Shown one piece after another: positions 36,473 to 59,884 of a stretch of DNA of 64,000 nucleotides; positions within the stretch are counted from its first letter, which is position 1; each line of letters starts with the position of its first letter. This DNA comes from an uncultured Flavobacterium sp. GTDB taxonomy: Bacteria > Bacteroidota > Bacteroidia > Flavobacteriales > Flavobacteriaceae. The notes beneath the pieces were generated by a model that worked only from the letters and a program-made list of their open reading frames with translations, ran no database searches and was not told the DNA's origin. Made by a program: the position numbers and the translations under genes. The stretch is from assembly GCF_937967675.1 (NCBI RefSeq), contig NZ_CALBSN010000090.1, positions 6,851 to 70,850 on the forward strand, written 5' to 3'.

Positions 36473-38386
36473 TTAAGAATTGAGTTTTAAATCAATTTTT
36501 GTGAACTTATTCTCATTCTCAAAATATCTAATAGTAGTTGTTTCTTCTGTATTATCTTCAATTGTATTATCAATTAACTCCATAATAAAATCCAAACTAT
36601 CAGGATAATATATTTTTAAATCATTAAATACAGATGCAATATAATTTTGACCGTTATAAAAAAAAGCGGTTCTTATGACCGTAACCAAAAGATTTAAACC
36701 TATTTTCTCATTCAGACCACATAATGTAGCATTTTTCCATGCCTCAAGATCACCATTGCGAAGTAAAGCAGAAAATGAAAAAGCAATAAACGCATTTTCG
36801 ACATTGTCTTTTTTTGATTCTTGAACACCTAGATTGAACCAAGCTAAATCATATAAAAAATCATATTGAAGAGCCTTTTCAAATTCACCTTTTTTAGTGA
36901 ATTTAATTGCAGTTTTTTCATCACGTTTTTGTAATGATGGGTAACCACTGTCTAATAGAGACTTTAAACATGTATATTTTAATACCCATTCATCAATATG
37001 TATATTATTTACGTTCTCAGTAAGGAATTGATCTATTATATTTACTGCTGATGAATAATCTCCTAAAAACATAACAGAGTCAGCTAATAAAGCTTTAGCC
37101 AAATAATAGTCCGTTTGTAATTCAATAGATTTTGAATAGAATTTACTAGCAAAATAAAATTTCTTTAAAAGAAATAAAACACCTGCCATTTCATAATAGT
37201 AATAAGCTTGTTTTTTATATTCTGGATTATATTTTCTAGCTTCTAAATAATATTTTAAAGATATTTCAAATTTTTTTGAACTCCTAAAATGATTTCCTAG
37301 GTTATAAAGAGCAGTCGATATACTTAACTTATCTTTTTTAAATTTTGCAGTTTCTAGTTGTTCTACTAAAAAATCTTCGTAAATTAATAGCTTATCTTCA
37401 CTAAAATCCTTTTTAATTGAAATTAAAATAACACTCATTATAATTTCAATTAAATTATCATCATCACTAACTTTAAAAAATTGTGAAAGTTCTTTTAATG
37501 TTTCTTCAAAATAATTACCTTGAATTAAATGATGTAAAATATTTATTATAAAATCTTTTTTTTGTTTTATTATGGCGAGTAAACCATTCTCAAAAATAAC
37601 ATCATTACCCAAATTATTCTTACCAATATCAAATAATACTTGAGCAAAAGTAATTAAAATATATTTTGTAAGTTCTTCATAATGATGTTCTTGCAGATTG
37701 GAAAAATTTATTTTCATTCTTGCAAAAACAAAATCGGTAAAACTCAAAACTATTTGATCTTTATCAACTTTAATCTGTAAAATAGAATCGTTAGAAATTT
37801 TAGTTAACTTAAAATAGTTATTCTTTTTTTCAATACAATTTTTTATTATTGAAATATTTGAAAAAGGTATTATTGTTCTATTTTCATCATAATCTTCTCT
37901 TTCAACAAAAGTTTTTATTGGAAACTTAATCTTACCTTGTTTAATAAATAATTGTCGTTGTAAATAATCTATAATACCTTGATGACTCGTTTCATCCCAT
38001 AAATTATTTTCAAAAAATAATACATTTATATATTTATTTTCAGTTTTAAAATTTGTGATATTTTGTGACCACCTGTAATAAAACGCCTTTTTATGTGATG
38101 AATAACGAACAATTAAAACAGGTATATCATAATTAATAAATTGTATGATTTTTTCATTTTTAAAAGATATACTTTTAATTGTTTTATTTTTATCGGAATC
38201 CGTACCTTTAAGTTGAACCCAAAAAACTAAACCAGTTGAATTTCCTTTATTATCAAAAATTTCAACTTCACAATCAATACCATAGTCGTCATTTTTATCT
38301 CTACAAACCCAAAATTTAGGTAAAGATTTCTTAAAAAATAGTCTGGATTCATCTTCAATTAAATGATTTCTCGTTCTTTGTCCCAT
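36473..38386 (-). CDS. DUF4365-like PD-(D/E)xK nuclease domain fused to a long TPR-like helical-repeat region
   Basis: The N-terminus EDESRLFFKKSLPKFWVCRDKNDDYGIDCEVEIFD…VFWVQLKGT fits the DUF4365/Mrr-like pattern (D…E.E…QLK). The C-terminal roughly 450 aa are helical with TPR-like YY..A/…Y..A.. spacing. Start at M9 (38386) or 38410. Confidence 0.6.
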   Translation of the reverse strand: MGQRTRNHLIEDESRLFFKKSLPKFWVCRDKNDDYGIDCEVEIFDNKGNSTGLVFWVQLKGTDSDKNKTIKSISFKNEKIIQFINYDIPVLIVRYSSHKKAFYYRWSQNITNFKTENKYINVLFFENNLWDETSHQGIIDYLQRQLFIKQGKIKFPIKTFVEREDYDENRTIIPFSNISIIKNCIEKKNNYFKLTKISNDSILQIKVDKDQIVLSFTDFVFARMKINFSNLQEHHYEELTKYILITFAQVLFDIGKNNLGNDVIFENGLLAIIKQKKDFIINILHHLIQGNYFEETLKELSQFFKVSDDDNLIEIIMSVILISIKKDFSEDKLLIYEDFLVEQLETAKFKKDKLSISTALYNLGNHFRSSKKFEISLKYYLEARKYNPEYKKQAYYYYEMAGVLFLLKKFYFASKFYSKSIELQTDYYLAKALLADSVMFLGDYSSAVNIIDQFLTENVNNIHIDEWVLKYTCLKSLLDSGYPSLQKRDEKTAIKFTKKGEFEKALQYDFLYDLAWFNLGVQESKKDNVENAFIAFSFSALLRNGDLEAWKNATLCGLNEKIGLNLLVTVIRTAFFYNGQNYIASVFNDLKIYYPDSLDFIMELIDNTIEDNTEETTTIRYFENENKFTKIDLKLNS

Positions 38387-38450
38387 ATTGTCCTTGAGAA
38401 TTAATAACAATGTTTAATTAAAACGCAGTTTACGAAATAAATTTTTATTC

Positions 38451-39212
38451 TTACCATAAATGCTTTGGTCCATCAATAGATTTTCGAATTAAATTATCAT
38501 AAGTTCTAATCTTAATGTTTTGTTTTGAAAAACTATTATTTAAATACATTAACCTCTGTTTTTCTCTTTCATTAAGTTTGCTCCATCTTCCTAAAACTAT
38601 TAAATATTCAAAGGTACAATATTCATTTCCACCAAATCCATTCCATAAAGCTTCTAATTGATTTTTCGAACAATAAATAAAATTTCCTTTTTCACCTTTT
38701 TTTGGAAATTTAGGAGATTCTTTCAATAAACGGAATGAAGTATTAAAGAAAGTTTGTTTATTTGATTGAATCCATTCATCCCAATCGTTAATTTGCCCTA
38801 AAGCAATTTGCAATTTATTAGCTGGAGTTAATTTTTTGGTAAATAATTTATCGTTAGGTCTTTCAATTTCAATTAGTAAAACTCTGCAACCACCTTGACT
38901 AACGCTAAAAATAGCGTAATCTGCAAAATTAAAATTACTAATTGGAGGCTTCATTAAAATCCCTAGGTATGTTTCATCAGAAGATGGAGCAAGTCTAAAT
39001 AGGAAATGAGAATTTTGAGATAAAAAAAATTGAAAGCTTTCTTCAGATTCATCTTTCAATATCAATTCGGCAAAACCCTCTATTTCTTTAAAGCTTGGTG
39101 ATTTAGTTAATTTATGAACTTTGTTTTCATCTCCGAGTATAAGAGGGTCAAATATTTCATTTAATATTTCCTGAATATTTTCTTTCATTTTCGTTTTTAT
39201 AAGTTTTAACAT
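38451..39212 (-). CDS. Short Shedu-like (DUF4263) nuclease-family protein
   Basis: ESFQFFLSQNSHFLF … ADYAIF … LLIEIERPNDKLF … ANKLQIALGQINDWDEWI … YLIVLGR follows the DUF4263 core order as I remember it. Confidence 0.55.
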   Translation of the reverse strand: MLKLIKTKMKENIQEILNEIFDPLILGDENKVHKLTKSPSFKEIEGFAELILKDESEESFQFFLSQNSHFLFRLAPSSDETYLGILMKPPISNFNFADYAIFSVSQGGCRVLLIEIERPNDKLFTKKLTPANKLQIALGQINDWDEWIQSNKQTFFNTSFRLLKESPKFPKKGEKGNFIYCSKNQLEALWNGFGGNEYCTFEYLIVLGRWSKLNEREKQRLMYLNNSFSKQNIKIRTYDNLIRKSIDGPKHLW

Positions 39213-39849: not shown

Positions 39850-40800
39850 AATGTGAATGGAAACCGAGATGCCCCACACACATTTTTGCAAAAGAAAAAA
39901 GGAAAAAAAGAAAGCCCTTTTGCCTTGTGGAGGGTTTCAAAAAAGCAAGTTTTACGGGTAAAATACTACCCTTATGCGTCTGTGGAAACGCTAAGTGGAT
40001 GTGGTGGTTTTGAAAATGTATGGGTGGAGATTTTATCCGGAACCGAAGGCTTGAACTTGCTTTTTTGAATACCCGGAACAAACCTTTGGCTTCTTTTTTA
40101 TCCTTTTTTTTGTAAAAATGTTTACCCAAAATGTTCTTATGAAATGAGGTTTTAGGGGTGTTCAATCGGGACTTGTGAATAAGGGTGTGTTTTTTTTTTT
40201 TTGCTAGACGACCTCGACTACGCTCGGTTTGACAATATGGTTTTGTGAAGATGAGAAAAAAGAAAAACACACTCTTGTGATAGTTTGATTTTTGAGGATG
40301 CTTTGAAAGTGTTCAATATTCAGTTTTTAGTGTTCAGTGGAGAGTGTGAATTGGAAATGGGAAGCATCTTCAAAAAACAATGCAAATTACGTTAGCGGTA
40401 GCGTTCCTTTTCTTTTTCGGGTGGGTGCGGCTGGGAGCGGATATTTTACATAATAACCCTTATAACTTTCAGGGGGACTGCGTGGGGTGTTGGGAATGAA
40501 TTATAAGGTTTATTATGTAATAATAGCTTGGGAGTGGTTTTTGTGTGTTTTTAGCGTTTGTTTTTGGGATTGGGTGTAAGTGGATAAAAAAAGGCGGACT
40601 GTGCGCGAGGGGTTGGGAAAACAGGGAGCCTTTTTTTATTGACTTACTTTGGGTAAAACAAGTGCTAAAAACACACAAAATACCACAGGAGCGTTGGGGA
40701 GCGTTGGACTGGGTGGGTGAAATTACATCAGCGATAGCGTGCCGATTTTTTTACATGAAATTAGCGAAATGAAGCAAACAAATAATTGATGCTAGGAATA
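39850..40800. other. ORF-poor, G-rich (plus strand) segment with internal repeats
   Basis: Only low-complexity ORFs on either strand, with G-runs (gggtgggtg twice), a 20/24-identical 24-mer pair and a 20-bp inverted repeat. Composition is clearly different from the flanks. Confidence 0.6.
40446..40520. repeat. 20-bp inverted repeat (19/20) with a 35-nt G-rich loop
   Basis: ttacataataacccttataa (40446-40465) against ttataaggtttattatgtaa (40501-40520). Confidence 0.85.
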
Positions 40801-40943
40801 CTTGGACTAGGAGCGATTTTTGTGCAGGTGAATTAGTTAATGAGATAGGTCACTTGTACTTAAGATATTTGTTTAAAAGCTTTGTAATCTATATACTTCG
40901 GTGAATTGGTAAAATATTAGATCTTCCTAATATTACAAAATTA

Positions 40944-41891
40944 TTAAGGTTTTGTATAGTTTAAAATATCAAAAGTTAACTTTGAAAATGGTCTTTTATA
41001 ATAATATTGATGATTAAAATTTGTTCCATAAAGGGTTGCTCTTAATCGACTTAATCTAGGTTTGTTTGCTAAAGGTATTTGATTACTAATAGCACTTATA
41101 TAACTTATTGGGTACATTCTTTGTTTATTAAGAATATCTTTTATTATTTCTTTATGAGTTTTGTATCTTTCTAGTAAACCTATAGTTTCGATAGATTTTT
41201 TAAATTCTTCTTTGTACTTAGTTTTAATTAGAACTAGATTCAATTCTAATTTACTTGTATCTGTAATAAAACCTGCTCCAATTGGATTTAATAGAAAAAA
41301 ATAGGAATTATTAACATTGACATTAAGATGAGGATTGAAAAAATCTGCATTTTGATTCAACTTAACAAAATTACAGGCTTTACAGCATGGCACTAGATTA
41401 AAGAATGAAATAGCAAGAAATGGATAATCTATTTTGGAATAAATATGATCCCAATCAAATGTTCTTCTAATAGGAGTTACACTTCCTCTATATCTAAATG
41501 AATATGTGAAGTTTTCGTTACAATATGGACAAGTGAAGATATCTAGATTATCAGCTAAATACGAAGAAGAGTATTTAATACCAAGTTTTCTATTTTCATA
41601 AATACCTTGAATGAAATAATTATACAGCGTTTCGAGGTCAAAATCTGTTTTGATTATGCTTTTATCAGTTAAAGGCAGTGTGTCAAAATAAGTTTTAATT
41701 TCATATAATTTTAGAGGACTAGCTTTTAATAAATCTTCAAAATTATTGATGATGTTTCCAAAATGTAATTTCACCAAAGCATCTATTTTTTTAGTACTAT
41801 ATTTTTTTGCAGTTGTATTACAATAGTCCAGAATAGATTCTGAATGAGTTTCTAAAAAAGATTTGTAATTTGAATAGTGGACACTAATCAT
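40944..41891 (-). CDS. HNH-type nuclease, PtuB-like (Septu-like partner)
   Basis: CPYCNENF … DWDHIYSKIDYP … FNLVPCCKACNFVKLN gives the CxxC…DH…N…CxxCN HNH geometry. The start lies 1 nt after the stop of the upstream ATPase. Confidence 0.6.
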   Translation of the reverse strand: MISVHYSNYKSFLETHSESILDYCNTTAKKYSTKKIDALVKLHFGNIINNFEDLLKASPLKLYEIKTYFDTLPLTDKSIIKTDFDLETLYNYFIQGIYENRKLGIKYSSSYLADNLDIFTCPYCNENFTYSFRYRGSVTPIRRTFDWDHIYSKIDYPFLAISFFNLVPCCKACNFVKLNQNADFFNPHLNVNVNNSYFFLLNPIGAGFITDTSKLELNLVLIKTKYKEEFKKSIETIGLLERYKTHKEIIKDILNKQRMYPISYISAISNQIPLANKPRLSRLRATLYGTNFNHQYYYKRPFSKLTFDILNYTKP

Positions 41892-41892
41892 T

Positions 41893-43773
41893 TTAATTCG
41901 TTTCTTTATTGTTATTTATATCTGTTTTGATAAACTCGTAGTATTCATCAAAATTTTTCATTTTTTGAAAATCAATCATTTTTTGAATCTCATCTCGAAT
42001 TAAAGATTCTCCAATTAACTTATTGAAATTCTCAACTTCAAGTATGTTTACAAAATCGGATTCCTCATTATTAAGAAACTTTATAGCTTGATTAATTTTA
42101 TCAAAGGCAAACTCACTAATAAACTCCTTAACATAAAAACCATCATTAAAAAGTTCGAAAATATTTCCTCCAAGAGTTGGTAAGTGATTTTCTGATTTAG
42201 AAACTTTACAATAACCATTCTCATCTTTTATTAAAAATATCAGATTGTGTTTTGGAATATCAGAAACTATAAATGGAGAATGTGAGGTTATAATCATTTG
42301 AATTCCCTTATTAAACTTTTTAGCATAAAGTTGAAAGAACTGAAATAAAGTATTAATATATTTTCTCTGCCACTCAGGATGTAGATATAATTCTCCTTCA
42401 TCAATACTAATGATTATATTGTCCTTATGAGAGTATTTAAATGCTTCATGAAATTCTGATAATTGGTATAAAATAGCATCTTCACCTGAACTAAAAGGTG
42501 TAATACTGTAATTTATTAGAGCTTCTGATCTGAAATCTGTTATTAAAAGTATTTCTTTTAGAAATTTCCATAAATTCTTGTTTAAGGATAGTTCAAAATT
42601 TCCATTACCAAAAAACTCTTTAGATTCTGATATTTCAATGTTTTCAAGTAAAACATCTAGATTCTTCAATAAGTCATTTATTTTATCAATTTCATAGTTT
42701 TGTTTTTGACTTTTTTGAGTTATTAAATATTCATATATAGAATTGAAAATATTATCATCTAAAGAAAGTGATTCAACAAATGCTGATACATTCTTTAGAT
42801 AACCAAATTCACCAGTTCGTTTAAAAAAATCATTATAGAAGGCAAAAAATAAGTAATGAAATTTAATTCCTTTTTTAAGCTTTTCTTTAAAATTGACTTC
42901 TTCATTATATAATTTAAAACAATGCTTAGATATGTCTGCTAATCTCTTAAAATCATATTTAGAACTTTCAATCAATTTAATTGTTTCTGGGAAAATATTT
43001 TCATTGAACCATATTGTTATTTTTTCCGGAAATTTAATATCTCCTATAATTGAAAATTGATTTTCAAAACTATCAGAAAGAAAATTGACCATTCTTTCTA
43101 ATCTTTCATTCTGATATATAGATTGTAAATTGAAGCTTTCTTCTAAAAATAAATAGGTTTCATTACCTTCCTTCTTTTTATTGTAATCTTTTAAATATTC
43201 AGAAACCTTACTAGGTGAAAGTGATTGGCGTAACTGATAATCAACCGAACGGTTTAAAGGATTGTCTAATCCTAAGTAGTTTACGTTTTGGTTTGAACTT
43301 AAATTTGAATAAAAAATTAAATCAATTTCTTTAAAGGGATTTATGTTTTTTTTTTTGATTATTTTACCATTTTCTTCAGAGAATATTCCTTTCTCAGGAA
43401 GTGAAATGTTAATAGTTTGTTTTTTTCCAAAATGGGAAAATGTACTGACATAATCAATTATTTCATATGAGTTATCTTCTTCATTTTCAATAATGACAAC
43501 CACATTGTTTACTAATGGTTTTTCAGCAGCAATTACATTTATTAATTTTAATAATGAACTTTTCCCTGAACCATTTATACCTATAATTCCAGATATATTT
43601 ATTATTTCAGAATTACTAAATAAGTCGTAATAATCATCTGTATTCTGAATACTTAAATTTAAAATTCTTTTCTCTTGGTCAAAATTGAATTCGTAAGTAT
43701 TTCTACCTCCAAAATTAAAACCTTGATTTTTAATTTTCATATAATCTTCAACCCAAATTGCAGCTAATCTCAT
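41893..43773 (-). CDS. ABC/OLD-like AAA_15/21-type ATPase, PtuA-like
   Basis: Walker A GINGSGKSS (about aa 66-72), signature-like SSGE, Walker B IIISIDEGELYLHP and H-loop ITSHSPF. Confidence 0.65.
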   Translation of the reverse strand: MRLAAIWVEDYMKIKNQGFNFGGRNTYEFNFDQEKRILNLSIQNTDDYYDLFSNSEIINISGIIGINGSGKSSLLKLINVIAAEKPLVNNVVVIIENEEDNSYEIIDYVSTFSHFGKKQTINISLPEKGIFSEENGKIIKKKNINPFKEIDLIFYSNLSSNQNVNYLGLDNPLNRSVDYQLRQSLSPSKVSEYLKDYNKKKEGNETYLFLEESFNLQSIYQNERLERMVNFLSDSFENQFSIIGDIKFPEKITIWFNENIFPETIKLIESSKYDFKRLADISKHCFKLYNEEVNFKEKLKKGIKFHYLFFAFYNDFFKRTGEFGYLKNVSAFVESLSLDDNIFNSIYEYLITQKSQKQNYEIDKINDLLKNLDVLLENIEISESKEFFGNGNFELSLNKNLWKFLKEILLITDFRSEALINYSITPFSSGEDAILYQLSEFHEAFKYSHKDNIIISIDEGELYLHPEWQRKYINTLFQFFQLYAKKFNKGIQMIITSHSPFIVSDIPKHNLIFLIKDENGYCKVSKSENHLPTLGGNIFELFNDGFYVKEFISEFAFDKINQAIKFLNNEESDFVNILEVENFNKLIGESLIRDEIQKMIDFQKMKNFDEYYEFIKTDINNNKETN

Positions 43774-43796
43774 GTATTGTTTATTATAAGTCGTTT

Positions 43797-44558
43797 TTAT
43801 GCTAACCCAGTATAACTTAATTTATCATAATATTCAGATGAGTTTAATAAAATCATCGGAGCATCAATATAAAAATCATTATTAAATCCAAATTTAAAAA
43901 ATACAGCATATTTATTATGTGGTGGCAAAAAACTTTCCATGTAATCATTAAAAATTTCAACTTGAAATTTTAAAGCTGTGTTTTTTGGAATTATAATTTC
44001 ATTATTTAAAATAGTGTTTACAGTTTCTCCATCTTTAGGTAATCTAATTTTGTATTTGATTGTTGGTCTAAGTAATGTTGGTATTTCAATCATTGGTCCT
44101 GATAAACCAATTGGAAGTCTTTTGTTTTTTAGTTCAATATTAGTTAGTAGAATAGTTTTGTCAGAATTATTGATAAATGTAAAATTGAATATTGGAAATA
44201 GTGATTTAAAGCTAACTGCTTCAAAAGCATTCTTGGTTTCTTTAATAGCTTCCCAACCGCAATTTTCATTATCAATGGTTACAGAAATAAATTGAATATC
44301 AGCATTTTTATTGATTAAATTATTCTTCCATTTTTTTACTTCATCTATTTGAATGTCTCCTTTTGTGATTTTAGAATGACAAATTGGGCAAAGCAAAATA
44401 AGATTATCCATTGAATTATTATTTGGGTTTTCATCAATATGATGAATTTCAAAATGTCCAACATCTTTATTTTCACAATTAGGACATTTCGAGTTTATTT
44501 CTTGTTGAAGCATTGCTCTGACTTTGTTAAGCTGAGGAATCGGAACCCTTTTTTTCAT
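43797..44558 (-). CDS. HNH endonuclease domain protein with uncharacterised C-terminal domain
   Basis: CPNCENKDVGHFEIHHIDENPNNNSMDNLILLCPICHSKI in the first roughly 65 aa. The remaining roughly 185 aa carry no motif I recognise. Confidence 0.7.
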   Translation of the reverse strand: MKKRVPIPQLNKVRAMLQQEINSKCPNCENKDVGHFEIHHIDENPNNNSMDNLILLCPICHSKITKGDIQIDEVKKWKNNLINKNADIQFISVTIDNENCGWEAIKETKNAFEAVSFKSLFPIFNFTFINNSDKTILLTNIELKNKRLPIGLSGPMIEIPTLLRPTIKYKIRLPKDGETVNTILNNEIIIPKNTALKFQVEIFNDYMESFLPPHNKYAVFFKFGFNNDFYIDAPMILLNSSEYYDKLSYTGLA

Positions 44559-44569
44559 GTTATTATTTA

Positions 44570-47500
44570 TTAAATTGTCTTTAAAGTATCCATAACTTTA
44601 TTTGAATTTAATCGTAAGTGGTCAATTTTTAGCATATCATCAAAAACAGTCAAAGCTTTTTCAATTTGTTTTTTGTTTGCATTAAAATTATTGTTTAAAC
44701 TGCTATATATTGATAAAACTAATTGAACGGGCTCTGCATCATAATGCCCCCTATCTTGCACAGTTATTACTTTATTAAATTTCATATTTTTTAACAATTC
44801 TAAACATTCATTAGGATAATCTTTTGCACATTGTAACAAATACTGTAAAAAATATCTTGGTTGATTTCTGAATAATATTGTTTTAGAATATTTCTTCATA
44901 AAAGGAAGCAACTCCTCAAAATTTGAATTATTAAATTTTCTTAAAATTAAAGTTGAGTAAGAACTTGCAAAATCATCATCTATTTGATTTATAAATTCAA
45001 ATAAAATATCTAGGCATTTTTCATTAATTATTTCCTTCGCAAATAGGTTTTCTTCTGCAATATGCAAAGCTTGTAATTTTGCTTTCTTACTACTATTTAT
45101 AAATCTGTTATAATATTGCTTGTTTGTATCGTAACCTAATAACCAACTATGAACAATTAAATAACTACCTTTGTCATGTAATTCTTCATTATCAATGACT
45201 TTATCCATTAATGGTAGCATATTTAAGTAGAACTTTTTATTAAAGTAGCTAGCCGATTTAAAGCAATACTTAAGTATTAAGGCGTCTTTTGTATCCGTTA
45301 GTTTAATGAAAATTTTAAAAGCTCTGTCAATATCTAAATAATTGAGATATGCAAGGTTTAACAATATCGCAACTTTTACAGAAGTTTGTTTGTCATCGCA
45401 AGCATTTTCAACAGTAGTAAAAATAGTATCGCTAAATTGAATGTTATAATAACAATGAATTATCCTATGAATTGCTGCACCTCTCACTGAATTTAAGCTA
45501 TCAAAATGAGGGTCTGTAGGATTATTACTTTTTTCTGGATGTGGGTGATTCAATGCTAAATTAGAAAGGTATCCTAATATTTCATTATCTATAACTTTTT
45601 CCTCAATAAAGTAGCTTACGTTCCATATTGAACTCAAAGTATTTGATAAATCGAGATTGAGCTTAATTAATTTTAAATAAAGTTCTTTAACTAATCTCGC
45701 ATCGAACTTCCCTTTAATTAAGCCATCAATACCCGATGAAATATAATCTATCGAAATATTTTGAATATCAAATAGATCCTTAACTAGAGGATAAAATTTA
45801 ATCGGATCATTTGTTACCTCTTCTCTAAAACTATTAGAATGCTCACGTTTCCCACCCTTAAAACTATCGTTAAATCTATCTCTTTCATAATAATCATTAA
45901 ACATTAAAAAACTTTTTTTCCAATCAATTAAAGTCATTTTTTTATATGCACTTAATTCAAGAGGTGGACCAACAACTCCAGATGATATATTACTTCTATC
46001 TAATTGTTTTACATTAAGCTTACCAAATTTTCTAAATAATTCTTGATGAGTTCTTTTTAAAACAGGAATAGATTCCATTTCAGTCTTAGGCAAGCTATTT
46101 ATAAATAAATACTTTTTCTTTCCATAGAACCCAAGTGCTGGTTTTCTTATATTATTACTGTCGTTGTAATAATATATATCCGCAGGGTGTTTTATTGATA
46201 AAATAATATTTGCCAATTCTAATTTTTGGCTTTCAGAAAAAATACTAAAACTTTTAGAAATTAATTCTCTCAAGTATAGTTGGAATTTATCATCATAGCC
46301 ATTAAATCCATTTTTAGAATGAATGATTTTTATGAATTCAAAGACTTCTTCTTTATATAATAATGGGATTTCTGTTAGACCTAGAATTAAAATTTTAAGA
46401 TGCGAAATAGAATTTGAATCTTTATGTTTTTCATAATAGTTCTTGAAAAACAATTTGTGTTTAGATTTAGATTTGATATATTTTATAAGCAAATTTTCAA
46501 TTATATCATCCGCATTTTCTTTTATATCACTTTCAAATAATTCAGAGAATTTTGAGTTTTTATACAATGGACTATCTTCAATATCACCCCCTTTTTCATA
46601 TTTATTATTATCTACTATCTCGTCAAAAATTGAATGAAAATAAAAGAAGCATAAATCTGGATTGATATTATTTATTTTCTCAATTAAACTACTTTGCTCA
46701 TTAGTAAAGTTTATTGTAAATGAATGTTCTTCGAAACATTTTAAAATGATTGGTTTTAATTTATCAAATACAAAGTTGGGATAATAATTGAAAATTTTTT
46801 CTAATATCTTATAATACCAAAAGTTATCTCTGTTTTTATCTTCTATATTGAAATGAAAGTATTTGTCAAATAATACTAATAATTTTTCAAAGGACCAATC
46901 ATCGACATTAATCAAAAATCTATTTATAAAATTTATCTTTTCATCTGATTCAGGAAGCTTTTCAATAACATTTAGGATTACATCTAAGCCGTCTTTTCTA
47001 TTATTTATAAATAAACGGAATAACAATGCTAGTCTCATTTCTTTCTGCTTCAAATAATCGTACTTAAGTGAAAGCCCTTGCTTAATAATTTTATTTAAAA
47101 CTAATTTTTCATAAAAATTGATTTTCCAATCTTTTTGATAATCAAAGTATTTCAATGGAATGTTTTGATTAACAATAAACTTTAACCACCCCAAAGAAAA
47201 AATTGAGTTTATGAAAAGTCTGGTTAAGTCAAAATCAGTCAAAATGAATTTTGATACAATATTTTTTTCTTTATTTGTGGGATTTTTTACGTCACCCAAA
47301 CTTGTTATAACTAAAGTTTTAATGTGAAACCTAAACTTTGATGAAGTTATAAGCTGAGTTATTGTTTTGCAATATTCGTCATGGTTATACTCTCTATAAT
47401 ATTCAGTAACCATTTTAATGATTGATCGAACATATAGACTTTGTTTATTTTCATTAATATAGTTACTTAATGATTTTTTATTTTCAACAAATTGCCTAGA

Positions 47501-49012
47501 AAATGTATAATCATAAAATGTTTGATGGAAAAATTGTAATTCATTGTTGTTCTCAATTAGCAAATGATTACTTTTTAAATAATTTATTTCTTTTGAATAT
47601 TGATTTTCAAAAATATTACTGATTGTAATTTGCTGATTCTGATACATTCCGTCTGCTATTTTATACAAAACAGATTTTAATTGTAATTCACTTTTGCTGT
47701 ATATCAGTTGTTTCCATAGTGCATCATATAAATCCTTCAATGACGACAAAGTATCTATATTAATCTTGCTTGGTAACCTGCAAAATATGTCTAAATGATT
47801 TGGAATCGCTAATAATTCTAAAAATTTATCAGAACAATCATTAATTCCATATTTCAATAAAACTTCTTGAACTTTTTCTTTAGATATTCCAGTAATTTTG
47901 ATTTTTGAATATTCATTAGATTTATAAATACGCAATTCAGCATCATAGTTTAAATCGTAGCTTCTTGTAGATATCACTACTCTAACATTAGAATAGAAAG
48001 ATAAATCGTATATTAATCTATTATAGGTTTGAATGAATTCCCTATTTGTTGATAATGTTTGTGAAAGCGCATCTAATTGATCAATTACAATTACTAGAGC
48101 TTTATTTTCATTTTTATAAAGCTGAACAATTTTTTCAATTGATATATTCTCTTTTTGAAATATTTTTTTTTCTAATTCAATTCTATCTGACGCATAATAT
48201 TTATCTGCCTTAATACCTAGTACGTTTGTATTATTTTGTTTAAGTTTTAGTAATAAGTCTTTTAGAACTACTGTTTTACCATAACCTTTTTCTCCTTCAA
48301 GAATAAATATATTTTTTTGTTCACTAGTTAAATCATTATTAATCCAATTATATATAGCATCTGTTTCACTTCTTTCAATATGGGTATCTGTATTTTCTCC
48401 AAAAAGAGTTGGTACATTTTCAAGATAAAAATTTGCTTTATTAATTTCTATTTGGCTTTCATCTAAAGAAATGTTGTTCGTTATGGTTTTATGAATATCT
48501 TCAACTTTTTTATCAATATCTGCTATTTTTAAGGAATCTTCAATTTTAAAAACCTGATTATAAAGATTATGTGTTTTGAATAAATCAATTAAATCATTAC
48601 CGTCTTTTAATATGATAAAATCATCCTTTAAATTGTGTTTAGACTTCATCGAATCTACCCATTCACACCACCATTTATTCTGTTTTAAATCTAAAGTTCT
48701 CGGAATACATAATATCCATTTCTCTGTTACAAATTCCCCTGAATTAATTACAGTATTAAAAGAGTCTTTAATTTGTTGTTTTTGGGAAGAACCAAAATCT
48801 TCTAGAAAAAATTTACATTGAATGACAGAAATTGGTTCAACACCAATATTACCAATAAAAACATCTATACCGCCATCCCCAACGGATATTTTAACTGTTT
48901 TGACATTCCTATCTTTATAAATAACATTAAACAAGGTACCACAATCCCTTTCAAACGCGGCTCTTGCTCCCTCAATATTTACATTTCTAACTTTATAGTC
49001 CTGCCAATCCAT
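44570..49012 (-). CDS. Mrr-like nuclease - STAND P-loop NTPase - helical-repeat protein (Avs-like), 1480 aa
   Basis: aa about 19-67: AFERD…GDGGIDVFIG…VIQCK (Mrr_cat-type PD-(D/E)xK). Walker A GEKGYGKT (about 240-247), Walker B LVIVIDQLD (about 306-314), then VVISTRS. About 1100 aa of helical C-terminal region follow. Confidence 0.65.
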   Translation of the reverse strand: MDWQDYKVRNVNIEGARAAFERDCGTLFNVIYKDRNVKTVKISVGDGGIDVFIGNIGVEPISVIQCKFFLEDFGSSQKQQIKDSFNTVINSGEFVTEKWILCIPRTLDLKQNKWWCEWVDSMKSKHNLKDDFIILKDGNDLIDLFKTHNLYNQVFKIEDSLKIADIDKKVEDIHKTITNNISLDESQIEINKANFYLENVPTLFGENTDTHIERSETDAIYNWINNDLTSEQKNIFILEGEKGYGKTVVLKDLLLKLKQNNTNVLGIKADKYYASDRIELEKKIFQKENISIEKIVQLYKNENKALVIVIDQLDALSQTLSTNREFIQTYNRLIYDLSFYSNVRVVISTRSYDLNYDAELRIYKSNEYSKIKITGISKEKVQEVLLKYGINDCSDKFLELLAIPNHLDIFCRLPSKINIDTLSSLKDLYDALWKQLIYSKSELQLKSVLYKIADGMYQNQQITISNIFENQYSKEINYLKSNHLLIENNNELQFFHQTFYDYTFSRQFVENKKSLSNYINENKQSLYVRSIIKMVTEYYREYNHDEYCKTITQLITSSKFRFHIKTLVITSLGDVKNPTNKEKNIVSKFILTDFDLTRLFINSIFSLGWLKFIVNQNIPLKYFDYQKDWKINFYEKLVLNKIIKQGLSLKYDYLKQKEMRLALLFRLFINNRKDGLDVILNVIEKLPESDEKINFINRFLINVDDWSFEKLLVLFDKYFHFNIEDKNRDNFWYYKILEKIFNYYPNFVFDKLKPIILKCFEEHSFTINFTNEQSSLIEKINNINPDLCFFYFHSIFDEIVDNNKYEKGGDIEDSPLYKNSKFSELFESDIKENADDIIENLLIKYIKSKSKHKLFFKNYYEKHKDSNSISHLKILILGLTEIPLLYKEEVFEFIKIIHSKNGFNGYDDKFQLYLRELISKSFSIFSESQKLELANIILSIKHPADIYYYNDSNNIRKPALGFYGKKKYLFINSLPKTEMESIPVLKRTHQELFRKFGKLNVKQLDRSNISSGVVGPPLELSAYKKMTLIDWKKSFLMFNDYYERDRFNDSFKGGKREHSNSFREEVTNDPIKFYPLVKDLFDIQNISIDYISSGIDGLIKGKFDARLVKELYLKLIKLNLDLSNTLSSIWNVSYFIEEKVIDNEILGYLSNLALNHPHPEKSNNPTDPHFDSLNSVRGAAIHRIIHCYYNIQFSDTIFTTVENACDDKQTSVKVAILLNLAYLNYLDIDRAFKIFIKLTDTKDALILKYCFKSASYFNKKFYLNMLPLMDKVIDNEELHDKGSYLIVHSWLLGYDTNKQYYNRFINSSKKAKLQALHIAEENLFAKEIINEKCLDILFEFINQIDDDFASSYSTLILRKFNNSNFEELLPFMKKYSKTILFRNQPRYFLQYLLQCAKDYPNECLELLKNMKFNKVITVQDRGHYDAEPVQLVLSIYSSLNNNFNANKKQIEKALTVFDDMLKIDHLRLNSNKVMDTLKTI

Positions 49013-49016
49013 AATT

Positions 49017-51383
49017 TTATAGATTTATTTTGTCATTATCTTCAATATTAATTTGAACCTCTTCTCTTAGTTTAATATTTGAATGTAAAAAGTTTCTATC
49101 CGCTAAAAGTTTAGTGACTTCATTATATACTTGTTTTTGACCTTTTGTATCACGAATGGTTACAATAAGTGTAAAATCTTGGTTTAATTCTTCTCCATCT
49201 TGAATTGCTAATGTTTCAGCAAAATCTCTATATGTGCCTTTAATCTTAGCATACCATTTTCTATTACTAGCCAAACTATCACGTTGTCTAGCATCTTTCA
49301 TTTCACTTAAATTAACTGAATACTTTTTTACAGGTTGATACTTTTTACCATAATTGAGTAATACTCTTTCGCGTGCATATTCACTCTCGGTATCTTTAAT
49401 ATGTGCACTTTTGTAATTTGAATCAAGTAAAATATTTTGCGTGTCTTCTGGACCAATTTCATTAAGAATGTTAGCTTTAGTAGTGTCACGTTCTTTTATG
49501 TTTTCATACGTACCAAACATTAATTCTAAATTTGATTGACAATATTCTGCACCTTGTTTTTCTCTCAATACTGGTTGGCCAACTAAGGTAATTTTAATTT
49601 CCCCATAGAAAAACCCATCATCATCTATTAAACTTTCAGGAAATGGAAATTCTAGTATTTCAATAAATTCACCACGATTAATATTTTCTTGTAGAATAAG
49701 TGTAATTTCATGTGGGTCATTATAGATTATTTTATCAGCCGATTCAGGAATTCCAAATCCCATTTGATTTACTCTTTCTCTTATAGGTAGAGCAACACCA
49801 GTAGGATATTTTGCAGAATGAATTGCCAATGCTTTTAGTAATGTAGGATTAAATTTTTCCTTAATTTTAAAACTTAATTCGGATAATAAAGATGTTACTC
49901 TAGGAGTTGCAAAACTTGTTCCTATTATTTTTACAGCATTACCGTTATGATCTATCGCATCAACTCCATTTTGAATTGTTCTACCAGCATTTAAACCAGC
50001 ATTTCCACCAAACGAAACCAAATCAGGTTTGATGCTGTTTGCGGGACCTGGTCCAATTCTTGTGAATGGAGAGGGATGATTAATTTCAGCTAAATCATAA
50101 GTCTTTTTTGAATGAGCAACTGAACCTACAACTAATGAACGAACTGAATCTCCAGATCTAGCTACTCTACTTTTGGGATGACCTTTTTCAAAGTTTTTAC
50201 AATTGCCTGTAGATTTGCAAATAATAACATCATTTGTTAATTGGATATCGTCTAAAGCTTTGCCAAAATCTGAGAAATCATTTATGTCTGACTCTGCTGC
50301 TGTACCAAGAGATAAATTCCAAATTTTTATATGATTATTTTTTTTAATTGCTTCTCTTATATTTTCAACTAATTCATCCTCATCTATAGTTTCTTGTTTT
50401 GAGTCAGGAAATACTGTAGCATCAAAAATTTTACAACCTGTGTTTCCAGTCCAATTTTTATTTTGTAATTGATCTCCATATATAATGACACTTGAAACAC
50501 AAGAACCGTGCATCGGATCAATTAAATTGTCTGGGTATGATGAAAATTTTTCTTCTAATAACCAAGGTGCTAAATATGAATTTTTAGACACACCTGAATC
50601 TAACACACCTACAATTGGATATTCAATTCCTTCAGTTGGTAGTTTTACTTCTGCAGCTTTATCAGATTCAACGCTGTCAATTTCTACATGATATTTAGGC
50701 ATAAAAGTTATAGATTCTAATGCTTCAAAATCAGATATACTATCTAGAACTACTTTAGAGGCGTTTTTAATCTTAAAGATTATTAAACCGGGTGAATAAT
50801 TAACTTCTTTGGCTTCGATATTATTTTCTTTGCAATAATTTAAAAATACAGTTTTTACAGATTGATTTAATTCAAAATTTAAAAAATCAATTAATGATAT
50901 TTTTACATTTTGATTTTCTTCAATTTCAGCTATATATGGTTTGAATATTTCAACTGATTCAACAGCAGAAATACCTCTCGCATTTTTTGTATAATTTATG
51001 ATATTGTTTTTTATTGCAATTCCTTCTTCAACACTATCAACTTTTACAATTGCACTGTTAGAATCTAAAAAACCTATAATGTTATTTTTAGTTACTTTCC
51101 CATTAAAAATTTTTTGAATATCTTTTCTATGGGACTTTGCAATAGCATTATCATCTATATCAATTTTTAAAGTCGCTGGTATAAAACTTCTTGATGATTT
51201 CCTTTCTTTAAAATCACCTATTAGCTCATCAATAGGGCCAATAAAACTTTCAGCTCTTTCAGCTAATGACGGTCCTGACAACTCCCATTTTGGTATGCTA
51301 TCGTTACCACCGCCCTCAACTCTTCTATCATCAATTTTTTGCCTTTTTTGAAAAAGCTTTATTGGTAAATTCTTCTTTGCCAT
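49017..51383 (-). CDS. Subtilisin-like S8 serine protease, IetS-like
   Basis: Catalytic motifs VGVLDSGV (D262), MHGSCVSS (H292), WNLSLG (N356) and GTSFATPRV (S490). Flanked by roughly 250-aa N-terminal and roughly 250-aa C-terminal extensions. Confidence 0.75.
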   Translation of the reverse strand: MAKKNLPIKLFQKRQKIDDRRVEGGGNDSIPKWELSGPSLAERAESFIGPIDELIGDFKERKSSRSFIPATLKIDIDDNAIAKSHRKDIQKIFNGKVTKNNIIGFLDSNSAIVKVDSVEEGIAIKNNIINYTKNARGISAVESVEIFKPYIAEIEENQNVKISLIDFLNFELNQSVKTVFLNYCKENNIEAKEVNYSPGLIIFKIKNASKVVLDSISDFEALESITFMPKYHVEIDSVESDKAAEVKLPTEGIEYPIVGVLDSGVSKNSYLAPWLLEEKFSSYPDNLIDPMHGSCVSSVIIYGDQLQNKNWTGNTGCKIFDATVFPDSKQETIDEDELVENIREAIKKNNHIKIWNLSLGTAAESDINDFSDFGKALDDIQLTNDVIICKSTGNCKNFEKGHPKSRVARSGDSVRSLVVGSVAHSKKTYDLAEINHPSPFTRIGPGPANSIKPDLVSFGGNAGLNAGRTIQNGVDAIDHNGNAVKIIGTSFATPRVTSLLSELSFKIKEKFNPTLLKALAIHSAKYPTGVALPIRERVNQMGFGIPESADKIIYNDPHEITLILQENINRGEFIEILEFPFPESLIDDDGFFYGEIKITLVGQPVLREKQGAEYCQSNLELMFGTYENIKERDTTKANILNEIGPEDTQNILLDSNYKSAHIKDTESEYARERVLLNYGKKYQPVKKYSVNLSEMKDARQRDSLASNRKWYAKIKGTYRDFAETLAIQDGEELNQDFTLIVTIRDTKGQKQVYNEVTKLLADRNFLHSNIKLREEVQINIEDNDKINL

Positions 51384-51384
51384 C

Positions 51385-52473
51385 TTATTCTACATTTAAA
51401 GCGTTTCTAACTTGTCTAATTGATATATCTAAATAATTTGCTATTTGTTTTTGAGGAATATGACTATCGTTTAAAAATTTAATCATTTCTTCAAATGAAT
51501 ACCTGTTGTTTTTTATGTATTTAAAATATTCAGAAAAAATATCTTCATATTCAAAATCTGTCTTTTGGATTATTGCTCTATAATATGCACTATTGATTAT
51601 TTTAATTATTTCAGAGTGAGACAGATTATTCATATATGTTTTTAGTACTTCAAATTTTTTTTCATCTGTAGCTAAATCTGAATCAATCTTTTTAAAATAA
51701 ATTTCTAATATTTTTTTTATTTCTTCAGTATTTGGCTTATTTACATTTATAACTTTTTCGAATCTTCTCCAGATTGCACTATCTAACAATTGTTCATGAT
51801 TTGTGGCTGCAATTAAAATTCCGTTCTCTAAAAATTCGTCTATATTTTGTAACAAACTATTAATAACTCTTTTTAATTCTCCTGTTTCTTGATTATCATC
51901 CCTTGCTTTAGCTATAGCATCAAATTCATCTAAAAATAAAATACAGGGTTTGCTTTTTGCATAATCGAATAGTTTTCTGATATTTTTAGCAGTGTTACCT
52001 AATAATGATGATATTAGAGAATCGAATCTTGCAACAACAATTGGTATATCTAATTCTTTAGCAATGTGTTTAGCAATGGTAGTTTTACCACAACCAGGAG
52101 GACCATATAATAACAAAGAAAGGTTAACATCTAAACCCCTGCTTTTTATTTCATTTTTTGAATTAACTAATGAGATAAAATTATTTACTGGATCACTAAT
52201 GCTTTCTGAAACAATTGCATCAAATTTAATGTCTTGTGGAAAAATTATATCTGCAATATTTAATCTTGTATCATTATCTACAGGAGCATCAAATAATTGG
52301 TCTTTAAAAACAGGCAACCCTTTGGAGCCTTGAATTGTTTTCAAAATTTTATCTGCAAGTTTATTATCTCCATCTTCTCTAAGTTTTTTTACAAGATGAT
52401 TAGAGTAATTAATTACTTTTCTTTGATCATTGTTTAAACCGCCTTCAATTATTTTTATTAGTTCAGTATACAT
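51385..52473 (-). CDS. AAA+ ATPase, IetA-like, with C-terminal HTH-like tail
   Basis: Walker A GPPGCGKT (about 124-131), Walker B ILFLDEFD, sensor-1 IAATN and Arg finger region WRRF. C-terminus QKQIANYLDISIRQVRNAL. Confidence 0.75.
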   Translation of the reverse strand: MYTELIKIIEGGLNNDQRKVINYSNHLVKKLREDGDNKLADKILKTIQGSKGLPVFKDQLFDAPVDNDTRLNIADIIFPQDIKFDAIVSESISDPVNNFISLVNSKNEIKSRGLDVNLSLLLYGPPGCGKTTIAKHIAKELDIPIVVARFDSLISSLLGNTAKNIRKLFDYAKSKPCILFLDEFDAIAKARDDNQETGELKRVINSLLQNIDEFLENGILIAATNHEQLLDSAIWRRFEKVINVNKPNTEEIKKILEIYFKKIDSDLATDEKKFEVLKTYMNNLSHSEIIKIINSAYYRAIIQKTDFEYEDIFSEYFKYIKNNRYSFEEMIKFLNDSHIPQKQIANYLDISIRQVRNALNVE

Positions 52474-52502
52474 TGATGTAAATTTATTTGGGTTTTATGA
52501 TA

Positions 52503-52510
52503 CAAATATA
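52503..52510 (-). promoter_or_regulatory. -7 promoter box (TAnnTTTG) for the defence array
   Basis: Plus-strand caaatata is TATATTTG on the minus strand, 30 nt upstream of the ATG at 52473. Confidence 0.5.
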
Positions 52511-52513
52511 ATC

Positions 52514-52564
52514 AAATCGTAACACAAAATCAATAAATCGTAATTTTATTTTGTAAAATCGTAA
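52514..52564. promoter_or_regulatory. Three perfect AAATCGTAA direct repeats spaced exactly 21 bp
   Basis: Copies at 52514-52522, 52535-52543 and 52556-52564. A degenerate CGTAAT copy at 52602 stays in the same 21-bp phase. Confidence 0.6.
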
Positions 52565-52737
52565 TAAATATATTTAAAAGTGTTGTAAAATAAGTATTTA
52601 GCGTAATTAAATTTTTAAATATTGATATTTTACTATTATAAATAATATCCCAATTGCAATTTACTACAGAATGTGTAGTGTTTTGCGAATAGTATATTTT
52701 TTAAGCTTTGGCAGTAAATTTGATTTATTGCCAAAAC

Positions 52738-53705: not shown

Positions 53706-53891
53706 TCAATTTGATTTTCTACTTCTTTTTACAGAATAGGTAGTACTAGGTTTTTCTTTAGCTTCTTTTTTTGTGACGTATCTACCTGTTTCTGCGCTTT
53801 TGTGCTGTTTGTAGGTTTTTGATTTTTTTTCTTGAGCATTGCTTGTTAAACTGAATGCTAGAGCTACTGCGAATAATAGAATTTTTTTCAT
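53706..53891 (-). CDS. Small secreted, highly basic peptide (61 aa), copy 1
   Basis: Signal peptide MKKILLFAVALAFSLTSNAQ followed by a Lys/Arg-rich 41-aa mature part. A near-identical paralogue lies at 59315-59500. Confidence 0.6.
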   Translation of the reverse strand: MKKILLFAVALAFSLTSNAQEKKSKTYKQHKSAETGRYVTKKEAKEKPSTTYSVKRSRKSN

Positions 53892-54276
53892 GATGTATTT
53901 AGTTGTATATAAATGACTCCTAAAATAATATGTTTTAACTGTATATAATTACGGTGTTTTGCTACAAAATATTACGGTTTTACCGTAAAAAAAACACATA
54001 AAACACCGTAATTTTTTTAACTGTATAGTCATTACTTTGGTTGCTCAATTAATTACTAACCAAAACACAATTATTATGAATGAACAACTCCAGAATGTCA
54101 GACAAAAGGTATTCTTTGTCTTGTTCTTAGCCTCCTTTTTACTATTAGGAAGTGCTAAGGTTTACTCTCAGACTAATAGCGGGCTTGCTTTTTCTTGGGA
54201 TAAAGAAGTAGGCTGTCAGACTTATGATTATGATGACAGAAAGAAAGTTTTTATAGAAGATAATAGGAGAATCGGA
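53741..54276. repeat. Direct repeat copy 1 (about 535 bp)
   Basis: Aligns with 59350-59884 at a constant offset of 5609 (5608 after a 1-nt insertion near 54263), with only a few substitutions. Confidence 0.9.
53948..54012. promoter_or_regulatory. Nested palindromes built from TTACGGT/ACCGTAA half-sites in a divergent intergenic region
   Basis: attacggtgtttt (53948-53960) pairs with aaaacaccgtaat (54000-54012). Inner palindrome acggt-ttt-accgt at 53974-53986. Confidence 0.6.
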
Positions 54277-54351
54277 CTAGAAATCTGCGATATTTGTTTA
54301 GAAATCAGAGGCATTGTGGCAATAGCAATCAGCTTTCTTCTTCTTTATTAA
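54076..54351 (+). pseudogene. Truncated, frameshifted duplicate of the adhesin 5-prime end
   Basis: The first roughly 62 codons match 59685 onward (signal peptide, …WDKEVGCQTYDYDDRKKVFIED). A 1-nt insertion then shifts the frame and homology ends at 54276. Confidence 0.8.
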
Positions 54352-59314: not shown

Positions 59315-59500
59315 TTAATTTTTACTTCTTTTTCTGTTGGTGCTATAAGTAGTACTAGGTTTTTCTTTAGCTTCTTTTTTTGTGACGTATCTACCTGTTT
59401 CAGCGCTTTTGTGCTGTTTGTAGGTTTTTGATTTTTTTTCTTGAGCATTGCTTGTTAAACTGAATGCTAGAGCTACTGCGAATAATAGAATTTTTTTCAT
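59315..59500 (-). CDS. Small secreted, highly basic peptide (61 aa), copy 2
   Basis: Differs from 53706-53891 only in the last roughly 8 residues (…TYSTNRKRSKN against …TYSVKRSRKSN). Confidence 0.6.
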   Translation of the reverse strand: MKKILLFAVALAFSLTSNAQEKKSKTYKQHKSAETGRYVTKKEAKEKPSTTYSTNRKRSKN

Positions 59501-59884
59501 GATGTATTTAGTTGTATATAAATGACTCCTAAAATAATATGTTTTAACTGTATATAATTACGGTGTTTTGCTACAAAATATTACGGTTTTACCGTAAAAA
59601 AAACACATAAAACACCGTAATTTTTTTAACTGTATAGTCATTACTTTGGTTGCTCAATTAATTACTAACCAAAACACAATTATTATGAATGAACAACTCC
59701 AGAATGTCAGACAAAAGGTATTCTTTGTCTTGTTCTTAGCCTCCTTTTTACTATTAGGAAGTGCTAAGGTTTACTCTCAGACTAATAGCGGACTTGCTAT
59801 TTCTTGGGATAAAGAAGTAGGCTGTCAGACCTATGATTATGATGACAGAAAGAAAGTCTTTATAGAAGATATAGGCGAATCGGA
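59350..59884. repeat. Direct repeat copy 2 (about 535 bp)
   Basis: See 53741-54276. Confidence 0.9.
59557..59621. promoter_or_regulatory. Second copy of the nested TTACGGT/ACCGTAA palindromes
   Basis: Identical to 53948-54012 (offset 5609). Lies between the divergent 61-aa peptide gene and the adhesin gene. Confidence 0.6.

Follow-up and report, generated by a model that had tools for sequence, protein, structure and literature searches.

The window analysed here, a 64,000-nucleotide stretch of contig NZ_CALBSN010000090.1 from an uncultured Flavobacterium sp., contains a complete gene on the minus strand (44570–49012) for a 1480-aa protein which can be assigned, with a probability of roughly 0.78, to the Avs7 family as part of a divergent branch in the Bacteroidota. 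From its sequence, the protein appears to be an autonomous sensor-effector whose nuclease is Mrr-like, where that of Salmonella Avs7 is Cap4. Window numbering is used throughout, and the percent identities that describe relatives (L080, L082, L090 and others) refer to the window Avs protein. The reading frame, taken from the list of open reading frames (ORFs) and their translations, begins with an ATG and ends with a stop codon at 44570–44572. It had been put forward by an earlier reading of the DNA sequence alone (the original prediction) and proved to be real. Homologs at full length (1427–1551 aa) were found across the Bacteroidota, with members in the Flavobacteriia, Sphingobacteriia, Cytophagia and Chitinophagia.

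The protein is composed of three parts: a Mrr-like PD-(D/E)xK nuclease, a STAND NTPase, and an all-helical sensor of approximately 850–960 aa. Domain matches, AlphaFold2 (AF2) models and Foldseek comparisons all place an effector, a STAND NTPase and a helical C-terminal sensor of at least 400 aa within this single polypeptide. The motifs that had been reported for it were all found at the expected residues: AFERD at 19–23, GDGGIDVFIG at 45–54, VIQCK at 63–67, GEKGYGKT at 240–247, LVIVIDQLD at 306–314 and VVISTRS at 345–351, including the putative catalytic residues D46 and K67. In alignments of 24–43 homologs reaching down to 34% identity, D46, D50, Q65, K67, G243, G245, K246, D311, D314, R324, R350 and H496 are invariant or nearly so. 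Thus, the motifs are under selection and do not represent chance matches.

A sequence search against PDB chains returned a single match, 9N00_A (1523 aa), in which residues 232–620 of the window protein aligned with residues 277–667 (E = 8.8e-10). When the family profile was used, the same match improved to E = 1.9e-18 and a second collinear stretch appeared in the sensor. Entries 9N00, 9N01 and 9YIX describe the apo form and the forms bound to major capsid protein (MCP) and EF-Tu of Salmonella enterica Avs7, or SeAvs7 (Lee et al., doi 10.64898/2026.01.04.697583; Nature 2026, doi 10.1038/s41586-026-10852-6, PMC13581612). In that study, Avs7 is described as a Cap4 nuclease joined to a STAND NTPase and to a bilobed TPR-like sensor that envelops the HK97-fold MCP; binding of the MCP leads to ADP-to-ATP exchange and an asymmetric tetramer in which cleavage of double-stranded DNA is switched on. 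EF-Tu serves as an enhancing structural cofactor in one Avs7 clade. The sensor is common to Avs7 and Dsr1, and the family presents at least 20 different N-terminal effectors. The authors take homology to the Avs7/Dsr1 sensor as the defining feature of the family (Lee et al., doi 10.64898/2026.01.04.697583).

To represent Avs7 at full length, a homolog from IMG/VR (L086:5173-9747, 1524 aa) that is 80% identical to SeAvs7 in the NTPase was used together with a set of relatives; the SeAvs7 NTPase fragment as a protein query had returned only fragments of up to 683 aa, all without sensors. An hhalign comparison of the whole window protein with the Avs7 family gave a probability of 99.3 and E = 3.1e-20 over 1336 collinear columns, with residues 11–1479 matched to 4–1520. 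The NTPase alone was matched with E = 1.8e-17 and the sensor alone with E = 8.6e-11 over 407 columns, extending under relaxed settings to a collinear alignment of 37–840 with 3–831. As controls, Avs7 sensor profiles were reversed or their columns shuffled, which gave E values of 0.4–0.8, and four unrelated proteins compared with each of two sensor profiles gave 0.17–0.84. A hidden Markov model (HMM) of the Avs7 sensor found no direct match in the window protein itself, and it matched four distant family members directly, including L057 (3.8e-15), L061 (8.1e-12) and L064 (1.7e-6). Homology of the sensor to that of Avs7 is therefore found both by profile-profile comparison and by the sensor HMM on distant members. 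The corresponding NTPase HMM matched 74 of 5422 ORFs, every one of them an Avs homolog or a fragment of one. A further tie to the family is provided by WP_229047075.1 from Chryseobacterium arthrosphaerae, a homolog with 42% identity over 99% of the length; the Avs7 paper lists it in Table S1, where it is seed #559.

The STAND NTPase module spans residues ~205–520 (47453–48400, minus strand) and comprises a nucleotide-binding domain (NBD), a helical domain and a winged helix, as delineated by sub-threshold Pfam matches, the 9N00 match and Foldseek. The Pfam families concerned, nSTAND_NTPase5, NACHT and nSTAND3, all scored just under threshold. A Foldseek search with the N-terminal half of the protein identified Avs4 (8DGF, E = 8e-18) as the closest structure, followed by Avs3 (8DGC, E = 5e-12) and then by the NACHT modules of NLRP3 and NLRP9. 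Residue mapping placed K246 and T247 of Walker A (GEKGYGKT, residues 240–247; 48272–48295, minus strand) on SeAvs7 K291 and T292, with G243, G245 and K246 invariant, and D311 of Walker B (LVIVIDQLD, residues 306–314; 48071–48097, minus strand) on D358, with D311, Q312 and D314 invariant. R350 (47963–47965, minus strand) corresponds to R395, which touches the ATP gamma-phosphate in SeAvs7, and H496 within FFHQTFYD (47525–47527, minus strand) corresponds to H545, the winged-helix histidine which touches the ADP beta-phosphate (Lee et al., doi 10.64898/2026.01.04.697583). In all, four residues of the SeAvs7 ATP/Mg site (K291, T292, D358 and R395), the ADP contact H545 and the autoinhibitory R367 are identical at K246, T247, D311, R350, H496 and R324, respectively, and all six are invariant in the family. 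The NTPase is thus homologous to that of Avs7 with the residues of the nucleotide site retained. Past the winged helix, a helical domain (residues 521–639; 47096–47452, minus strand) is conserved with residues 575–667 of SeAvs7 in phmmer and hmmsearch alignments to 9N00.

The C-terminal sensor (residues 640–1480; 44573–47095, minus strand) was identified by an AF2 model and by the profile-profile comparison given above. The AF2 model of residues 560–1480 is confident (mean pLDDT = 88.5) and presents an almost purely helical solenoid that ends with a helix at 1464–1479, in agreement with the helical repeat region suggested earlier for this part of the protein; approximately 960 aa are nearly all helix. 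The conserved C-terminal helix of Avs7 clashes with the NBD upon activation (Lee et al., doi 10.64898/2026.01.04.697583). Its counterpart in the window protein is the helix at 1464–1479: the alignment reaches 1479 against 1520, and L1454, F1457, D1458, L1461 and R1467 are conserved. With the sensor alone as query, a threshold of E ≤ 1e-3 gave 433 representative clusters (50% identity level) and one of E ≤ 1e-30 gave 177; nearly all of them have the sensor as the C-terminus of a protein of ~1300–1600 aa. No SIR2 domain or other N-terminus of the Dsr1 kind was found in nine shorter sensor-bearing proteins, which look like truncated STANDs.

At the other end of the protein, the effector (residues 1 to ~180; 48473–49012, minus strand) is recognized from a PADLOC model and from its AF2 topology. 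The PADLOC model of the LmuA nuclease domain, PDLC03851, matches residues 8–178 with E = 4.4e-22. Pfam Mrr_cat_2 scored 16.6 bits against a cut-off of 22 bits; across 24 family members, Mrr_cat_2 was matched in seven, Mrr_cat in five and Cap4_nuclease in none. A search of PDB sequences with the profile of the nuclease domain gave no match. The AF2 model of residues 1–640 (pLDDT = 86.6) has the alpha-beta-beta-beta-alpha-beta core of PD-(D/E)xK enzymes, made up of helix 13–31, strands 37–41, 49–53 and 61–66, helix 75–89 and strand 96–102. The putative catalytic core consists of D46, D50 and Q65-C66-K67 (GDGGID ... IQCK; 48812–48877, minus strand), which are invariant or nearly so in the family; in the model, D50 opens the second strand while Q65-x-K67 closes the third. 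Nucleases of the Mrr and Cap4 types typically display a D...QxK arrangement. The proposal of a Mrr_cat-type nuclease is consistent with the matches to Mrr_cat and Mrr_cat_2, which are weak and under the Pfam threshold; the catalytic motif and the topology are both present and family-invariant.

The same nuclease domain is found in 77 of the 119 closest relatives. In the other 42 its place is taken by a domain of Mrr_cat type, by a different PD-(D/E)xK variant or by a trypsin-like domain, or no domain is recognizable there. Such swapping of effectors among relatives is the usual signature of Avs genes.

Considered side by side, the window protein and SeAvs7 share the three-part layout and are of similar length (1480 and 1523 aa). 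The NTPase, the domain past the winged helix and the sensor are homologous and collinear, the C-terminal helix is present in both, and both have a PD-(D/E)xK nuclease with a D...QxK motif and occur as single-gene units in defence islands. They differ in that SeAvs7-type proteins carry Cap4 (PDLC03848) while the nuclease here is Mrr-like (PDLC03851), in the host (Proteobacteria versus Bacteroidota), in an EF-Tu interface which is mostly not conserved, and in a sensor identity of ~16%. In PADLOC, the Avs7 homolog L086 and the window protein are matched by the same pair of models, an LmuA-type nuclease (of a different sub-model) and PDC-M54A. No literature on PDC-M54 was found, and the name 'AvS7' in a Phocaeicola paper denotes a phage and is irrelevant.

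Several points weigh against this assignment. The Pfam matches of the NTPase and of the nuclease are both under curated thresholds. When the nuclease alone was compared with Avs7 by hhalign, the result was not significant (E = 0.015), and the window nuclease is not the Cap4 domain of SeAvs7. The sensor is only ~16% identical to SeAvs7-type sensors, which leaves room for a different trigger. A Foldseek search of the PDB (library to 2026-04-08) with the sensor model returned generic HEAT/ARM solenoids, with Avs4 having the highest TM-score at 0.38; 9N00 was not among the returned matches, perhaps owing to the date of the library, and this search gave the bilobed fold no support in three dimensions. 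Finally, the EF-Tu interface residues Q999, D1003, K1044, H1048 and D1059 of SeAvs7 align, in a low-confidence part of the alignment, with K986, Q990, K1033, M1037 and D1049, so that only two of the five are matched. Since the interface is mostly different, the EF-Tu cofactor step is probably not carried over. These residues define one Avs7 clade only (Lee et al., doi 10.64898/2026.01.04.697583), and the window protein probably lies outside it.

Other known systems were also compared. The original prediction of an Avs-type sensor-effector holds with respect to architecture and is refined by the 9N00 match and the hhalign comparison to Avs7 as opposed to Avs1–5. The profile comparison with Avs1–5 that it had suggested produced no match of any PADLOC AVAST/Avs model at E ≤ 0.01, and membership in Avs1–5 (AVAST types I–V) was rejected on this basis. 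Avs4 (EcAvs4/SeAvs4, 8DGF) and Avs3 (8DGC) are the best structural matches to residues 1–640 and likewise combine an N-terminal nuclease with a STAND NTPase; the window sensor matches Avs4 weakly only (TM 0.38). Avs3 and Avs4 form target-induced oligomers, with Avs3 sensing the terminase and Avs4 the portal.

Dsr1 combines a SIR2 effector with an Avs7-type sensor and also senses MCP (Lee et al., doi 10.64898/2026.01.04.697583). It is without a STAND NTPase, while the window protein has a STAND NTPase and a nuclease. Since Dsr1 shares the Avs7 sensor, its sensor should by transitivity be related to that of the window protein; the PADLOC Dsr1 model was matched by neither the window protein nor the Avs7 homolog L086. 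The LmuA effector of Lamassu has a nuclease module of the same kind as the N-terminal 170 aa of the window protein, whose remainder is STAND and sensor. Membership in Lamassu was rejected because the LmuA match covers residues 8–178 only and no PADLOC LmuB was found in the five neighbouring genes tested. Apart from the LmuA nuclease and PDC-M54A, the window protein matched no Avs1–5, Dsr1 or other defence model in PADLOC.

The architecture of the protein, the homology of its NTPase and sensor, the conservation of its nucleotide site, the swapping of effectors, the defence-island setting and the genomic autonomy of the gene come directly from this analysis. The trigger, the oligomerization and the DNA cleavage of the mechanism that follows are carried over from SeAvs7 by homology. 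At rest, the protein would be an ADP-bound, autoinhibited monomer as in SeAvs7. During infection, the helical C-terminal sensor would wrap around a newly made, conserved phage protein; given membership in the family, the odds that this trigger is the HK97-fold MCP are about even. Clamping by the sensor would free the NTPase for exchange of ADP for ATP at a nucleotide site formed by K246/T247, D311, R350 and H496. Oligomerization would then assemble the N-terminal nuclease domains (D46/D50, Q65 and K67) into an active enzyme, which would degrade DNA and abort the infection.

The alternative that survives best keeps the same Avs7-like machine but gives it another trigger, such as a portal, a terminase, a tail protein or a perturbation of the host. 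It is a minority view that deserves to be taken seriously. Besides the sensor identity of ~16%, it draws on the MCP contacts: of the three MCP-contact residues tested in the Avs7 paper, Y1289 is replaced by S1255 and N1361 is unaligned, so that one of the two residues that could be mapped differs. Many helical sensors of like gross shape also recognize different phage proteins (Lee et al., doi 10.64898/2026.01.04.697583). Against this, the third residue, N1204, maps to the near-invariant N1174 and the alignment is collinear from end to end. The distant homologs SeAvs7 and Dsr1 both sense MCP with Avs7-type sensors (Lee et al., doi 10.64898/2026.01.04.697583), from which specificity appears to follow sensor homology.

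The most persistent neighbour of the Avs gene is a gene for a 253-aa HNH protein (43797–44558, minus strand; Pfam HNH, E = 1e-6), which starts 11 nt past the Avs stop and encodes an N-terminal HNH motif followed by a ~170-aa C-terminal domain of no recognized family. The two genes might form a unit in which the HNH protein serves as a second effector or regulator. The tandem arrangement at 11 nt is found in both the window and L080, and five other Flavobacteriaceae genomes (L006, L008, L011, L066 and L070) have HNH homologs of 52–62% identity right next to the Avs stop, while a sixth (L012) has a remnant. The genera with intact homologs are Yeosuana, Algibacter, Flagellimonas and Maribacter. 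In these genomes, however, the HNH gene is convergent with the Avs gene, at a distance of ~10 nt from its stop, and no HNH gene is present in ~70 of 79 loci. Decayed 5' remnants of the HNH gene lie past the Avs stop in L082 (14450-14580) and L090 (12300-12450), with the start codon lost or the frame shifted, while the Avs gene is intact. These remnants speak for such a unit, yet most loci lack the gene and it has decayed beside intact Avs genes, so that it is dispensable. The overall pattern also fits a selfish or hitch-hiking HNH gene, and a two-gene unit is unlikely.

On the opposite side of the Avs gene lies an IetAS system, with IetS at 49017–51383 and IetA at 51385–52473 (minus strand). 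PADLOC identified IetS with 1110 bits and IetA with 446 bits, and NCBIfam matched IteS and IteA. IetS is a 788-aa S8 subtilase that matches the PADLOC IetS model from end to end and Pfam Peptidase_S8 with E = 3.5e-28. As had been noted earlier, this protease gene lies directly upstream and the 4-nt gap is real: read directly from the sequence, the junction (49013–49019, minus strand) consists of the IetS stop codon TAA (49017–49019) and a 4-nt spacer, AATT, after which the Avs ATG begins at 49012. The original prediction went further and regarded the position behind IetAS-like genes as fixed, a matter which is not visible within the window, and suggested cross-talk such as proteolytic control by IetS.

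Expanded into a system, this suggestion calls for three genes, IetA, IetS and the STAND gene, in which IetS would process or regulate the STAND protein, or be acted on by it, with obligatory co-expression as the reason for the 4-nt spacing. The idea is reasonable given the precedent of ietHAS, a described three-gene variant in which IetAS is joined by a third essential gene (PMC13069673). The junction is common to 96–97% relatives across several metagenomes. The 97% relatives (L080 and L081) have an identical array in a single 12.3-kb blastn block of 96% identity, and the block also occurs in wastewater, river, groundwater and freshwater metagenomes. Contigs from low-depth metatranscriptomes span the IetS/Avs and Avs/HNH junctions, as co-transcription of the array would predict, but this evidence is weak since they carry no strand information and may include DNA carry-over. 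In L082, a ~70-nt remnant of the IetS 3'-end with an 18-nt deletion stands directly before the Avs ATG (9930-10000 versus window 49013–49090), which dates the junction to before the split at 89%.

Beyond these closest relatives, the synteny fails from both sides. Starting from the Avs gene, no IetS homolog was found near it in any of 79 loci from different species; one locus has an IetA-like ATPase and no IetS. In the 89% (L082), 88% (L090-L092) and 86% (L001) relatives, the chromosomal hotspot is the same and the Avs gene is intact, but IetAS is absent, the upstream genes are others and the upstream spacer measures 305–740 nt. L090 and L001 share the same upstream non-coding sequence, which is unrelated to that of the window. 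Starting from IetS, two contigs with 87%-identical IetAS pairs have other genes after IetS. In one of them (L087:4194-8246), a 1351-aa ORF without a Pfam or PADLOC match starts 29 nt past IetS and is followed by Gabija GajA, and in the other a PDC-S28 helicase comes next. Although a full-length IetAS pair is present upstream here, the STAND gene is thus no conserved partner from either side, and the conserved co-occurrence with IetA and IetS that a third IetAS component would display is lacking.

Since the 86–89% relatives have other upstream sequence and L082 keeps the IetS remnant, the junction arose by recombination in one lineage. It is a lineage-specific mosaic, whose recombination scar was erased in the 89% relative without harm to the Avs ORF. 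Both modules also match families that are complete as systems alone. IetAS itself reads as a separate defence system, adjacent because defence genes are packed together here. The position is therefore not fixed, the suggestion of proteolytic cross-talk is left unsupported, and the three-gene system is very unlikely. Tight spacing in a defence island, and even co-transcription, is no evidence of functional coupling. The Avs gene is considered autonomous because it stays intact among unrelated neighbours both in the 86–89% relatives and in the 79 species-level loci.

That the protein is a regulatory or housekeeping STAND NTPase which merely lies in a variable region is barely credible, for while its Pfam NTPase matches are under threshold, the catalytic motif of its nuclease effector is conserved, and relatives exchange this effector for other nucleases or proteases. 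It also shows homology to a family whose role in defence has been demonstrated, and its gene is located in a defence island.

The Avs7-like gene is part of a 12.3-kb co-directional defence array (40352–52614, minus strand) which contains IetA, IetS, the Avs7-like gene, the HNH gene, PDC-M62A and PDC-M62B with gaps of 1–23 nt. In the closest relatives, the array is inherited as a single block. The six genes are probably co-transcribed. Scans for promoters and terminators gave nothing firm on transcription units: no terminator-like site was found on the minus strand of the array, sigma-70 promoter sites were at chance level, and the pattern TTTG-N17-23-TAnnTTTG, a promoter pattern of the Bacteroidota type, was likewise at chance level and had no occurrence on that strand. 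The GC content is 24–29% in the region of the array and ~33% in its flanks. Rfam gave no match in the window and no tRNA genes were found.

The PDC-M62A/B pair (40944–43773, minus strand) encodes a Septu-like ABC-type ATPase and a PtuB-like protein and is a PADLOC candidate system; PDC-M62 is also found near Avs homologs in L002 and L004. Beyond the array lie genes for DUF6943, Shedu SduA and a DUF4365-TPR protein. The latter two, a 645-aa DUF4365-TPR protein which matched no PADLOC model and a 253-aa SduA, are inserted between DUF6943 and a conserved flank (36473–39212, minus strand). Since DUF6943 and this flank are contiguous in L080, the insertion marks a second variable spot in the island.

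On the other side of the array, a direct repeat of ~300–550 nt (53708–54284 and 59317–59882; 95% identity over 300 nt) with a 61-aa ORF inside flanks a 5.6-kb segment that carries DUF1573, CarboxypepD_reg-like and other genes. The same repeat element borders the variable region in L082 (234-788), and it may be a boundary of the hotspot or a duplicated attachment-like site. In L080 (2891-4116), RteC and HTH_17 (excisionase-like) genes lie ahead of the array where the window flank differs, which suggests that the hotspot is in or beside an integrative or conjugative element.

With respect to the family as a whole, it is doubtful, though worth stating, that the Flavobacteriia branch of Avs7-like proteins pairs with the HNH protein, or that its sensor has switched from the capsid to some other phage protein. 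If true, an accessory nuclease in the first case or another trigger in the second would set the branch apart as a new Avs7 variant. The preferred assignment to Avs7 would extend a family characterized in 2026 to a well-populated Bacteroidota branch with a Mrr-like nuclease and probably without the EF-Tu interface. Such a branch would be useful to ask which parts of the SeAvs7 mechanism are general. With the odds given above for its trigger in mind, the protein may also be regarded as a candidate capsid sensor against Flavobacterium phages, with relevance to aquaculture and wastewater.

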